Shown in pieces: positions 18,479 through 21,662 of a DNA stretch of 26,272 nucleotides. The position numbers and the translations under genes are program-made. The notes beneath the pieces are model-generated. The model was not told where the DNA came from. It searched no databases and was given only the letters and a program-made list of their open reading frames with translations. Source of the stretch: an uncultured Deferribacteres bacterium (GTDB lineage Bacteria; Zhuqueibacterota; Zhuqueibacteria; Zhuqueibacterales; Geothermadaptataceae); NCBI GenBank assembly GCA_964014485.1, contig CAXHAT010000109.1, positions 1-26,272 of the forward strand, given 5' to 3'. Every line of letters begins with the position of its first letter. Within the stretch, counting starts at the first letter, position 1.

Positions 18479-18527
18479 CCCGCTTCGCGGGGCTCAAAGG
18501 GTAAAAAGTGTAAAAAGCGCTCAAAGT
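18479..18527 (-). promoter_or_regulatory. Putative DGR target-recognition region (3' tract plus GAA-loop hairpin)
   Basis: After the stop, on the minus strand: ACTTTGAGCGCTTTTTACACTTTTTACCCTTTGAGC then CCCGC-GAA-GCGGG. Confidence 0.55.
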
Positions 18528-21500
18528 TTAAGGGACGTCCTGGGAGCAACGAAAACCCACATTGACGTACCTGAGGGTTGGAACGTACCCGTAGCGGTCG
18601 GCGCATCGTAAATCGTATGGATAATTGCTCCACGACCCGCCGCGCAACACACGAAGTTCTCCTGTTTTTGGCCCCGTCGGATTTTCTATAACGGCAGACG
18701 ACGTTTCGTATTTCGCATACCAGTCTAACCGCCATTCCCATACATTGCCCGCCAGATCACAAACTTTCTCCGGCGTAACTCCGCGCGGAAAAATGCCGAC
18801 CGCACTTGTACGCTCCAAACCGGTTTCGTCATAATTCGCCCGCTCCATGTCCGGTTTTTCATCGCCCCAAGGATAAATCCGCCCTTCGCCGTCGCGCGCG
18901 GCGTATTCGCCTTCCGCTTCCGTCGGCAGCCGGACAGTCACTCCTTTCGGCAAATCCAGCTTCTCCGTCAGCCAGTTGCAAAACGCCTCGGCCTCGAACC
19001 ATGAGACGCCGACCACGGGCTGGTTGGGCGCATTCCATGCCGAATCGTTCCACCAGTGCGGCTCGGACAATTCCTTTTTTTTGCAAAATTGCCAGCCGCC
19101 TTCACTCCACCATCTGCGTTCGCGGTAGCCGCCTGCCTGTATAAAACTCGCGAACTGCGCGTTGGTCACCAGATATTTCGAGATTTTAAATGGCAAGACT
19201 CTGACGCGATGTTCCGGGCTGGCGTCGTATAGCCCGGTAATTGTGTTGTCGCCCATCACGAATTCGCCGCCGGGAATGTCGATCCATTGCGGTTCCAAAG
19301 TGCAAACGCCGGGGCGCGGATCGCCGAGCCTGCCGAGTTGGAGTCCGGCTTCGGCGCGTTCGCGGGCGGGCAGGCGGCTGGTTTCGAGCAAGGTTACAAG
19401 GCGTTTGGTTAGGCGGTCGATAAAAGCCGGGCCGCCGCGGTCTTGCAGGATCACGTTTTTACCGATTTCATTGGCGAAGCAGGCGGCCCAAAACACGCCG
19501 CGCCAGCCGTTTTCGTCCTCCGGCGGAGGCACCGTTTCCGGGCACAGGTGGCAGGCGGCGTCAATGGCCGGAAACTCGGTCTGCATGTTGTGCAGCAGTT
19601 CTTCCACGCCCAGTTGCGCGGTGAGGCGCCAATAGTCGCCCTCGGGCAGGAGATTGACCAATTCGCGCTTAAAATCGCGCGTACGTTTGGCGAGAAAGCA
19701 GCCGGCGAAATATTCCTGAAAAGTGCGGTGCGGAAAGCCGTAGGTGCGGCTCTCTCCGCCCCCGCGTCCGCTCAAGAGTCCGGCGCTGTGGTCGACAAAA
19801 TCGAGAAATTTCTCCGCCGCCGTCAACGGAAACTCAACGCCGCTGAAATTGCGTTTGAGAATTTTCACCGCTTCGTCTTCCGGCAAATCAGCGCCCTGCG
19901 CGCTGCCGGAATCGCGGTCGGCCTGCTGGGCACGCCAGCCCAATTCCCACAGCGCCTGGTGCAGTTTGTTCTCGTCCTTGAGTCCGATTTCCTCGAACAA
20001 AGTGATTTTCCCAGCCTTTTCTTCCTGCCAGCGCAGCAGCAAAAGATCGCTGGCTTTTTTATAAAGCTTGACGCGCTGTTTCGGCAGTTCCACATTGTTG
20101 GCGTGGATCACAGCCATCGTGGTCAGTAAAAGCGGATTTTGCACCAGGGTTTTGTCCATATGCCCGACCGCGTTCCGCAGACTCGCTTTCTTTTCCTCGC
20201 CTTTTTCCAAAGTAAAATGATCGACGTGGATCAGCGCGTCGTACCAGCGCTGGATGAATCTCTCGATCTGTCCATCGTCGAACGGCGCCAGCGTCACATG
20301 CTTGCAGGCGGCAAGACGGGTTTGACCTTCGTAGGAACGCACGCGGCAGGTGACAATCACGCGGCTGCCGGGATTTTCGGCGCAAAAGGCTTCAATCGCT
20401 TCACGCGCCAAAACGCGCGGCACGGTCGGCGCTTCGTCGAGACCGTCGAAGACAATCAGGCAGTGACCGTCGGCGATTTCTTCGCGCAGGGCCGGGGCAA
20501 AATCTTCGGCGTCGTAATCTTCCTTGAGCTTGGCGGCGAGATGCTGGAAAACGATTTCATTCAACCGCTTTTGCCGCTGGAGGGCGCCCTCCTTTTTGCC
20601 GGATTCTGGACGGCTTTTTTCCAGCGCCACGACCAACTCTCGCACCAGCGCCCGCACCGGAAAACAATGCGCGTGCGGCCATTTTTCGAGCATCGCGCTC
20701 TCGCCGCCCCACTGTTTGGCGGCCAGCCCTGAGAGCAAGCGGTTGATAAACGAGCTTTTGCCGGCGCCGGGATCGCCGAGAATGACGAGATGATCATTTT
20801 GCGCCGCCGCCGTAAGCACGGCAAGTGGCAAGGTTTTGTCTTCTCCAGAGCGTTCGTCAACCCGCATTTTCTCTGACAAAATTGGCTTGCCGTCTTTGTC
20901 CACGCGGTCGGTGGTATTGAGATCGACGTAAACGTCTCCGAGAGACAGGCGGGCGTTTTTTTGCGGGTCGCGCTCTTCGGCAATGGCGGAGAGCGGCAGG
21001 CGGTCGCAGGCGGCTTGCAGTTTTTTCAGGTAGCGCCGCCGCACGCGGGCAAGATCGACCGCCGGCTTCGCGCTCGGCGTTTTGGGAGCGGCGTCCCGGT
21101 CTTTTTCACGCATCTCATCAATCAGCTTTTGCAAATCGATGCGGACGGCGTCTTTAAAATCCTGCGCTGTGTTGTACTCGCGATAGAGTCCTTCGTAATC
21201 GCCGCCCGCCTTGAATTTCGCGAAGAAGTCGTTCACTTTTTGCAGATGCTTCAGCACGTCCGGCTGAAAAAAATCTTCCGGCGGGCGGGTGCAGCGGTAC
21301 ATCATGATTTCCGGGCGGCCGGTTTTTTCAAATTGATCGAGCGCTGCGACAAACTCCTCCTCGAGTCCGCTTTCAAACGGTGCGCCGTCGGGCTTGTCGG
21401 CGCCGGTGGGCTGGCCAAACCGTTTCCAGAGCACGCCGACAAAAACGTCCCAGGTTTCCGGCGGAATCTGATCGAGCACGCGTTGCTGCGGGCGGCCCTG

Positions 21501-21662
21501 CTGCGGACGCGTATTCTTTTCCCAGCCGAGAAACGACAACGTAAGGCCGCGATTGTCGTAAACCAAATTCAATTCATTGATCACTTCGCGCAGGGCTTTT
21601 CGCTCTGCCGTTACGTCGGTCGGCGAAGCGCAAAATATGCGGATTTTTTGGGTTTTGGGCAT
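18528..21662 (-). CDS. DUF4062 - NACHT (STAND) NTPase - FGE-sulfatase/SUMF1 (C-type lectin fold) protein
   Basis: DUF4062 ([14 protein letters not shown]...[12 protein letters not shown]...SGLEEEF); Walker A GDPGAGKS, Walker B [40 protein letters not shown] linker; FGE domain ([49 protein letters not shown]...GFRC). Confidence 0.92.
   Translation of the reverse strand: [1044 protein letters not shown]
18546..18644 (-). other. Candidate DGR variable region (VR)
   Basis: [33 protein letters not shown]; 13 canonical variable positions are all NNY codons. Confidence 0.65.

Follow-up and report, generated by a model that had tools for sequence, protein, structure and literature searches.

Here, we describe a gene on the reverse strand of the window (the whole 26,272-nucleotide stretch analyzed, contig CAXHAT010000109.1 of assembly GCA_964014485.1 from an uncultured Deferribacteres bacterium) that encodes a predicted NACHT NTPase carrying both Walker motifs (A and B), preceded by a predicted effector domain and followed by a predicted sensor domain. 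We lean, with slightly more confidence than doubt, toward reading it as an orphaned and currently fixed member of a receptor lineage that is diversified by diversity-generating retroelements (DGRs), in which ligand-triggered NACHT assembly would lead to NAD+ depletion. Its three closest full-length relatives are all targets of a DGR in cis, whereas the equivalent place behind this gene holds other sequence, and a scan that recovers the template repeats (TRs) of eight clear variable regions (VRs) and one probable VR in the same genome finds none for this gene. The gene and its domains are as follows:

18528..21662, reverse strand: gene for the DUF4062(NIR)-NACHT-FGE/C-lectin protein, 1,044 amino acids (list of open reading frames [ORFs]; Pfam, PADLOC, and NCBIfam scans)
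21090..21662, reverse strand: N-terminal DUF4062/NIR TIR-like domain, residues 1-191 (Pfam, invariant columns, AlphaFold2 model, structure search)
20241..20789, reverse strand: NACHT P-loop NTPase core, residues 292-474 (Pfam; Walker motifs)
18546..19295, reverse strand: FGE-sulfatase-type C-lectin-fold domain, residues 790-1039, a predicted noncatalytic ligand binder (Pfam; PDB sequence matches)

The gene forms a single open frame of 1,044 codons. Pfam places FGE-sulfatase at residues 790-1039 (E value, 8.2e-59) and NACHT at residues 292-474 (E value, 1.4e-7; 32 bits against a cutoff of 26.7 bits), both above cutoff. Within the NACHT core, Walker A reads GDPGAGKS (K302 at 20757-20759) and Walker B reads DGLDE (D406-E410), and residues G296, P298, G299, G301, K302, and D406-E410 are unchanged across 31 aligned sequences. 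The DUF4062 match (residues 8-105; E value, 2e-3; 18.6 bits with the whole protein) lies below its cutoff of 24.7 bits but is backed by the relatives, 14 of whose 16 aligned N termini match DUF4062 at an E value of at most 0.01 (best, 3e-9), and by PDC-S60, which matches residues 7-252 (E value, 1.6e-27), that is, through the N-terminal domain alone, and has only the rank of a candidate system in PADLOC. The NCBIfam model EruA reaches 34.8 bits against a cutoff of 1,000 bits. In the 16 aligned N termini S98, G99, and E103 (21354-21356) are unchanged, the invariant Glu sitting in an SGxExEF motif. The three-part DUF4062-NACHT-FGE architecture put forward in a preliminary description of this DNA is borne out by these Pfam and PADLOC matches, and the tripartite domain order is that of the NLR-like sensor-switch-effector layout it had proposed. 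At an E value of at most 1e-10 we find 291 homologues, whose N termini differ (DUF4062, TIR, and PNP among them) and of which the nearest non-self one is 51% identical; protein P0001, whose tail is identical, represents the protein of the window itself as called from M266 and is not independent.

The last 41 codons show the framework RVLRGGSW-x6-LRCA-x-R-x4-P-x2-R-x4-GFRCSQ, and the following elements make up the tail and the 3' flank (G011 is a genome of the same order, 100% complete in 140 contigs; C and L numbers denote contigs and loci):

18531..18653, reverse strand: VR-type tail, R1004-P1044, in frame and of the same length as TR94 (the template on contig C94 of this genome) and the TR at G011:C80; L101, L109, and L110 have a verified VR at the homologous place
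18558..18629, reverse strand: hypervariable codons S1012-V1035
18492..18527, reverse strand: T-rich spacer of 36 nt with a period of about 9 nt (CTTTTTACA / CTTTTTACC / CTTTGAGC)
18479..18491, reverse strand: GC hairpin CCCGC-GAA-GCGGG, with a 5-bp stem and a 3-nt loop, 37 nt past the stop
18468..18478, reverse strand: A4T7 run, terminator-like, after the hairpin; relatives have (TC)GAAAATTTTTT at the equivalent place, right before avd

Both the VR-like tail of the preliminary description, located by it at 18546-18644 and thus inside 18531-18653, and its 3' hairpin are present. Similar periodic spacers stand behind the verified VRs of DGR-74, one of the DGRs of this genome, and behind the targets in L109 and L110. 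The pattern CCCGC-N3-GCGGG occurs at seven sites in the 8.4-Mb genome, about as many as expected by chance; five of the seven lie just 3' of C-lectin sensor genes, namely this gene, its C1 paralogue, and three verified VRs of DGR-74 (one on C30, two on C74) whose hairpins have an identical stem. These counts come from the 3-nt loop only, a search with a 3- to 4-nt loop being swamped by an unrelated abundant repeat. Hairpin and T run together pass a terminator scan. Of the 94 AAAATTTTTT sites in the genome, however, six have a hairpin directly upstream, so that the hairpin-A/T element is not the general terminator form of this genome. Efficient retrohoming in phage BPP-1 requires that a hairpin follow the VR closely (Guo et al. 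2011, PMC3240598), and the DGR hairpins described in that text have 7- to 10-bp GC stems, 4-nt GRNA loops, and a distance of 4 to 34 bp from the VR. As a sequence feature, we regard the hairpin as good evidence of kinship with DGR targets and as no proof of present use. Past it, a short ORF (MELTLYKCSFF...) is vaguely like the beginning of the L109 and L110 Avd; at the DNA level the alignment is unconvincing, and we make no claim of an Avd remnant. Two NACHT-FGE paralogues in the genome are likewise found without a template, C1:109171-111957 (+) and C289:195-3260 (-) (L021 and L022), and the C1 paralogue has the 3' untranslated region (UTR) of this gene, the hairpin (CCCGC-CCT-GCGGG), and the A/T run.

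The closest full-length relatives link this receptor type to DGRs, since in each the TR and the VR differ at template adenines exclusively:

L101, metagenome contig: 52% identity; TR/VR mismatches at TR adenines, 16/16
L103 (= L109), G011:C89: 51% identity; TR/VR mismatches at TR adenines, 15/15
L106 (= L110), G025:C325: 54% identity; TR/VR mismatches at TR adenines, 13/13

In L109 and L110 the order is gene, periodic spacer, GC hairpin, (TC)GAAAATTTTTT, Avd-like gene, TR, and reverse transcriptase (RT), and L101 shows the same order without a clean GC hairpin; the Avd identity of the gene past the A/T run is a matter of resemblance only. In L101, G011:C89, and G025:C325 the target-avd-TR-RT unit is complete on about 5 kb. 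The window gene shares this layout as far as the A/T run, and past the hairpin a REP-like repeat and then unrelated genes take the place of the avd-TR-RT cassette. The preliminary description had taken the FGE-type C-lectin tail for a DGR VR, which holds by descent, given the cognate adenine-only TRs of these three relatives. Of 77 loci taken from species genomes, 8 show a template in a strict cis scan of 100 nt and 15 hold an RT motif; both numbers are undercounts, as many loci are short contigs, and the scan also misses TRs of the L101 type, which measure only 81 to 90 nt. Genomes G016 and G023, flagged as unpublished, enter the analysis in two tallies and one row only, and no claim is based on them.

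Tails of the same subtype, GFRCSQDV, are found in G011 at C70:45394-45559, C80:103467-103617, and C38:25330-25481 (L108, L111, and L112), the protein on C70 (P0011) being of the subtype closest to the tail of the window gene. The three tails share a near-identical framework and 3' UTR, and the variable columns among them number 20, 13, and 7 at codon positions 1, 2, and 3, respectively. Between C70 and C80, read from the printed codons, 15 sense codons differ with zero third-position changes. Judged by its codons, this is the NNC type of pattern expected from AAC/AAT template codons, a DGR signature, which indicates that the tail type of the window gene is a DGR VR by descent. A template for the three tails was not found in G011 by BLAST, by a search with the 26-nt framework (at most three mismatches), or beside its RTs; the nearest template, at C80, has 27 to 30 non-adenine mismatches to them.

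A cognate template for the window gene was sought in its own assembly (G000; 8.4 Mb in 465 contigs, 97% complete) by a scan of every position on both strands that counts VR mismatches at template bases other than A. When the last 150 nt serve as the VR, no non-self place in the assembly has fewer than 37 non-adenine mismatches, and four 60-nt pieces of the tail find best places with 9 to 11 non-adenine mismatches among 33 to 44, all in A-rich junk. The control VR at C94:25804 finds TR94 with 2 non-adenine mismatches among 15, and its 60-nt pieces with 0 or 1. The 22-nt 3' framework GGGTTTTCGTTGCTCCCAGGAC occurs once in the assembly at up to two mismatches, with no second copy, and viral contigs hold no exact match to it. 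The genome has six RVT_1 matches, none of them on this contig, and the adenine-mismatch scan finds no TR in the window; no Avd is seen among window ORFs of at least 150 amino acids, Avd proteins being shorter and no Avd-specific search having been made. The preliminary description had likewise seen no RT, Avd, or TR in the window. Its expectation of a TR elsewhere that matches the tail with adenine-only mismatches fails in this 97%-complete assembly, where controls succeed, and active diversification of the ligand pocket in trans is unsupported for this gene. A VR-like tail with a hairpin is insufficient to call a DGR target, and in this genome the template test cleanly separates targets from look-alikes. 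As candidate templates we rejected TR94, which has 39 non-adenine mismatches among 55 in 125 nt even though the tail is its best nontarget match, as well as TR74 and TR135, which belong to another lectin type (Lcl_C) and are unrelated to the tail.

The genome itself carries three DGRs, with eight clear VRs and one probable VR (loci L015 to L020, at C94:22527-28356, C74:28572-35376, C135:5262-10638 and 21514-22452, C30:43229-45097, and C428:1885-2547):

DGR-94: template C94:28232-28356; three VRs, C94:25804, C94:24817, and C428:1921, with 15 to 18 mismatches in 125 nt, 2 non-adenine each
DGR-74: template on C74; four VRs, C74:32306, C74:28585, C30:44986, and C135:21518, with 15 to 20 mismatches in 99 to 102 nt, 1 non-adenine each
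DGR-135: template on C135; clear VR C135:5260, with 19 mismatches, 2 non-adenine
DGR-135: template on C135; probable VR C135:8843, with 14 non-adenine mismatches of 37, ungapped

Three of the six RVT_1 matches (C94, C74, and C135) carry LPIG(A/N)LTSQ and adjoin a TR with verified VRs; we take LPIGxLTSQ to be the hallmark of DGR RTs, NCBIfam having no DGR RT model. The remaining RTs were set aside, each without a TR: those on C60 and C102 resemble pieces of group II introns and score 230 and 204 bits, respectively, under the 300-bit cutoff, and that on C139 (C139:11332-12768, -) is Drt5-like (509 bits against a cutoff of 550 bits). In the element on C94, an HRDC accessory gene stands in place of Avd. 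The proteins that bear the VRs are, by Pfam:

C74, in cis: NNH1-NACHT-LRR-Lcl_C
C30, other contig: nSTAND-like NTPase-Lcl_C (nSTAND below cutoff)
C135, other contig: TIR-Lcl_C
C135: weak nucleoside-deoxyribosyltransferase-like match plus Lcl_C
C94: 1,182-amino-acid protein with two FGE domains and a VR in each

By domain content, the VR-bearing proteins of this genome are immune-type sensors. DGR-74 reaches two VRs on its own contig and one on each of two others, C30 and C135, so the remote diversification that the preliminary description envisaged is realized at other loci of this genome but is not shown for the window gene. For that gene, the idea of a remote DGR target keeps the VR type by descent, the hairpin, and the presence of DGRs in the genome, and lacks a cognate TR.

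The C-terminal domain matches PDB sequences of EgtB (E value, 2e-29), FGE (7e-28), and Treponema TvpA (2y3c; 4.3e-17). Aligned to FGE 6muj, it has a gap at the Cys-x4-Cys stretch of that enzyme (...LCHDSYC...), the two cysteines of which we take to be catalytic. The NCBIfam models for EgtB, SenA, OvoA, and PvdO score far under their cutoffs (EgtB, 141 against 360 bits) and match residues 787-1042 only. Because of the low scores with enzyme models and the missing cysteine pair, we read the C-terminal FGE-type domain as a predicted noncatalytic ligand binder rather than an enzyme.

For the N terminus, which has no match among PDB sequences at an E value below 0.7, a confident AlphaFold2 model of residues 1-200 (pLDDT, 86.6; pTM, 0.83) shows five beta-alpha units and places E103 at the start of helix 99-114; in TIR domains, the catalytic Glu is placed at the start of helix C. 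A structure search (not Foldseek) returns the TIR-STING (Z score, 10.6), the MAL TIR (10.2), and the CMP hydrolase MilB (10.1), with 2'-deoxyribosyltransferases (9.3 to 9.4) also among the top rows. The search thus has TIR among its tied top matches, but generic Rossmann-like and GTPase folds score alike. Foldseek on the same model gave mainly flavodoxins at TM scores of 0.3 to 0.5 and was uninformative. DUF4062 (now NIR) has been shown in 2026 preprints to be a TIR-like NADase with catalytic Glu E97 in KpSwz and E108 in PsAvs2, and to act as an effector of Avs and other NLR-like proteins (10.64898/2026.05.01.722283, 10.64898/2026.09.04.749371). NAD+ hydrolysis was demonstrated for other DUF4062/NIR members, and one of the preprints reports structure matches of kinds similar to ours, which do not discriminate between the folds. 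E103 is a candidate counterpart of E97 and E108. The preliminary description's putative nucleotide-processing effector agrees with these preprints.

Drawing on what is known of the family, we propose that the FGE-type C-lectin domain would bind a ligand, most likely invader derived, and that binding would release NTP-dependent oligomerization of the NACHT core. Oligomerization would gather the N-terminal DUF4062/NIR domains, which could then hydrolyze NAD+ and halt the infected cell in a defense by abortive infection. The last 41 codons, together with the spacer, the hairpin, and the A/T run, represent a DGR variable region by descent, whose avd-TR-RT cassette would have been lost. With the cassette absent past the hairpin and no match to any of the three templates of the genome, the receptor is most likely orphaned and of fixed specificity.

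Several observations weigh against this proposal. Toward the N terminus, the isolated domain scores 22.3 bits with DUF4062, still below cutoff, and generic GTPase and Rossmann-like folds tie with TIR, which is not separated from them. The window neighbors are housekeeping genes (SecDF, purA, GDH, and M28 peptidases) with no defense island. As for the loss of diversification, ORF, tail framework, and hairpin are all intact, as fits a target still in use. Active-looking VR sets without an assembled TR do occur, as in G011. With 465 contigs at 97% completeness, a short contig with avd, TR, and RT could have escaped assembly or binning, and DGR repeats break the assembly: C94 ends 232 nt past TR94, and one VR lies on the 2.5-kb contig C428. 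These latter points would equally suit an active remote target, with template and RT on unassembled or unbinned DNA and the pocket rewritten in trans. Such a target would have the VR-type tail and the kind of hairpin seen behind verified VRs, trans VRs are real in this genome (DGR-74 on C30 and C135), and the same subtype in G011 has apparently diversified recently with no template in the assembly. We nevertheless consider an active remote target doubtful. The template is absent from 8.4 Mb in which those of the other VRs are found, and with the tail framework present as a single copy, the cassette and any cis target would both have to be missing; moreover, the closest relatives have their cassette in cis. 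Metagenome contigs (three runs of one marine study; depth, 2 to 8) show no variant letters at 18531-18680, which is a weak point, and the unitigs break along the whole gene, the break at 18622-18628 overlapping by only 7 nt, as would a gap in coverage rather than a branch, evidence neither way. A bolder version takes the spacer, CCCGC-N3-GCGGG, and the A/T run as a portable landing pad that would mark DGR-competent C-lectin sensors, the receptor being rewritten in trans by an off-assembly template. We think this unlikely; if true, it would make the protein an anticipatory hypervariable sensor tied to NAD+ depletion, and would for the first time connect the newly defined NIR effectors with diversification by DGRs.

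At the other extreme, the protein might be an ordinary NACHT-lectin sensor that was never linked to a DGR, its tail the normal variable end of an FGE domain and its hairpin a terminator. The RVLRGGSW...GFR framework is indeed common to the entire FGE family, enzymes included, the hairpin with its T run satisfies the terminator scan, and the C1 paralogue shows the same 3' element, likewise without a template. This account is improbable when set against the verified cis targets with matching 3' layout among the closest relatives, the NNC-codon pattern of the GFRCSQDV-subtype tails in G011, and the position of five of the seven hairpin sites behind C-lectin sensor genes in a genome where few AAAATTTTTT sites have an upstream hairpin. 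We give still less credence, and very little overall, to a nonimmune signaling protein or an enzyme of the FGE/EgtB kind, as database names such as "SUMF1/EgtB/PvdO family nonheme iron enzyme" would have it. In NCBIfam and among PDB sequences, the C-terminal domain does match EgtB and FGE enzymes best, and the neighboring genes are of the housekeeping kind, but the enzyme models match far under cutoff and in the C-lectin half only, the FGE cysteine pair is missing, and the fusion of NACHT with an NADase-type effector follows the NLR syntax that bacterial NACHT proteins are described to have (10.1101/2022.07.19.500537).

Among known systems, the protein stands near the STAND/NACHT-C-lectin "antigen sensors" of multicellular bacteria, which are diversified by DGRs whose template is either close by or at a distant genomic site (Dore et al. 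2024, PMC10907252; Kaur et al. 2020, PMC7159879). It shares with them an N-terminal effector, a NACHT/STAND module, and, at the C terminus, a C-lectin domain of the FGE type with a VR-type tail, and several DGRs per genome with near or remote templates are seen in both this genome and its relatives. Unlike in those sensors, no template was found for this gene, and the effector is DUF4062/NIR, whereas the available text of those papers names peptidase, TIR, DRHyd, and EAD; DRHyd of Kaur et al. may cover DUF4062, in a comparison that excludes supplements. C-lectin-type STAND sensors were experimentally uncharacterized as of Dore et al. 2024 (PMC10907252). The preliminary description had already noted that similar systems are reported in other lineages, and PMC7159879 and PMC10907252 do describe the class; the architecture class is already published, and diversification of this gene is unproven.

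The NIR systems PsAvs2, Swarozyc (KpSwz), Evangelion, and human TEP1 (10.64898/2026.09.04.749371, 10.64898/2026.05.01.722283, 10.64898/2026.06.25.731849) likewise place an N-terminal DUF4062 beside a STAND/NACHT NTPase and appear to share the invariant Glu in an SGxExEF motif and the TIR-like five-strand fold. For sensing, they rely on TPR-like repeats or on auxiliary domains, with terminase or portal as the bound ligand, in contrast to the VR-type FGE C-lectin sensor found here. With bNACHT antiphage proteins (Kibby et al., 10.1101/2022.07.19.500537), the protein has the effector-NACHT-sensor syntax in common, and no relative observed exceeds 54% identity to it; FGS/FGE-sulfatase is one of two "antigen receptor-type" C-terminal domains described for NACHT/STAND proteins (Kibby et al., 10.1101/2022.07.19.500537; Nature 2026, PMC13581612). 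Treponema denticola TvpA and Bordetella phage Mtd also have a C-lectin/FGE fold with a C-terminal VR, and a hairpin downstream of the VR, of which the one here may be a shorter form, is described for DGR targets (PMC3240598). Those are surface or tail-fiber proteins, whereas the protein here is predicted to be NTPase coupled and cytoplasmic, and the hairpins reported in the available text have 7- to 10-bp stems and 4-nt GRNA loops against 5 bp and 3 nt here, where a template is missing too.

In a literature search, we found no paper combining "DUF4062" and "retroelement." The available text of the three NIR preprints does not mention sulfatase or retroelement, and that of one also lacks formylglycine, FGE, and lectin. 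The NIR-plus-DGR combination of L101, L109, and L110 thus appears to be unremarked under those words, supplements lying outside the comparison. The idea has been put forward that NACHT/STAND sensors with DGR-diversified lectins provide bacteria with anticipatory immunity, and the pairing of such a sensor with an NAD+ hydrolysis effector would give a simple readout of ligand recognition. The units of about 5 kb in L101, G011:C89, and G025:C325 are compact candidates for reconstitution. The window gene offers a contrast case, with the same receptor and 3' flank and without the cassette, that could show the fate of a receptor after retroelement loss and tell if the 3' hairpin suffices on its own for continued targeting.

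Around the gene, we observe several further features. The REP-like element past the hairpin (18200-18336) consists of two inverted palindromic units of about 30 nt (AAGGAGTGCAAGGCTTGCCTTGC...), with 267 short BLAST matches genome-wide. In the metagenome contigs it has a roughly 10-fold excess depth with many differing flanks and interiors, and a copy lies downstream of the C30 VR. Two Acido-Lenti-1 RNA motifs (Rfam RF01687), at 18065-18110 (+) and 17902-17947 (-), reach 48.6 and 48.1 bits, where the gathering score is 37; they stand in opposite orientation in the intergenic stretch that separates the sensor and PSCyt/PSD1 genes, with a terminator-like hairpin in each. GC content is 52 to 60% across the PSCyt/PSD1 and sensor genes (15001-22000) against 45 to 50% in most other window DNA. 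At the window end, a 187-amino-acid ORF (25652-26215, +) contains a Pesticin (phage-lysozyme-like) domain (E value, 1.2e-48).

The abundant repeat met in the hairpin search is an inverted pair, GTCATTCCCGCGCAGGCGGGAATCC...GGATTCCCGCCTGCGCGGGAATGAC, present on many contigs (e.g., C3:20913-20990 and C4:908-990), often at their ends. It makes up most of the 584 strand-wise CCCGC-N3/4-GCGGG matches and probably helps to fragment the assembly. Finally, several contig ends (e.g., of C311, C326, C343, C346, C355, C371, C396, and C403) carry ...GATGTGTATAAGAGACAG / CTGTCTCTTATAC..., which looks like Nextera transposase end sequence and would represent adapter remnants in the assembly.

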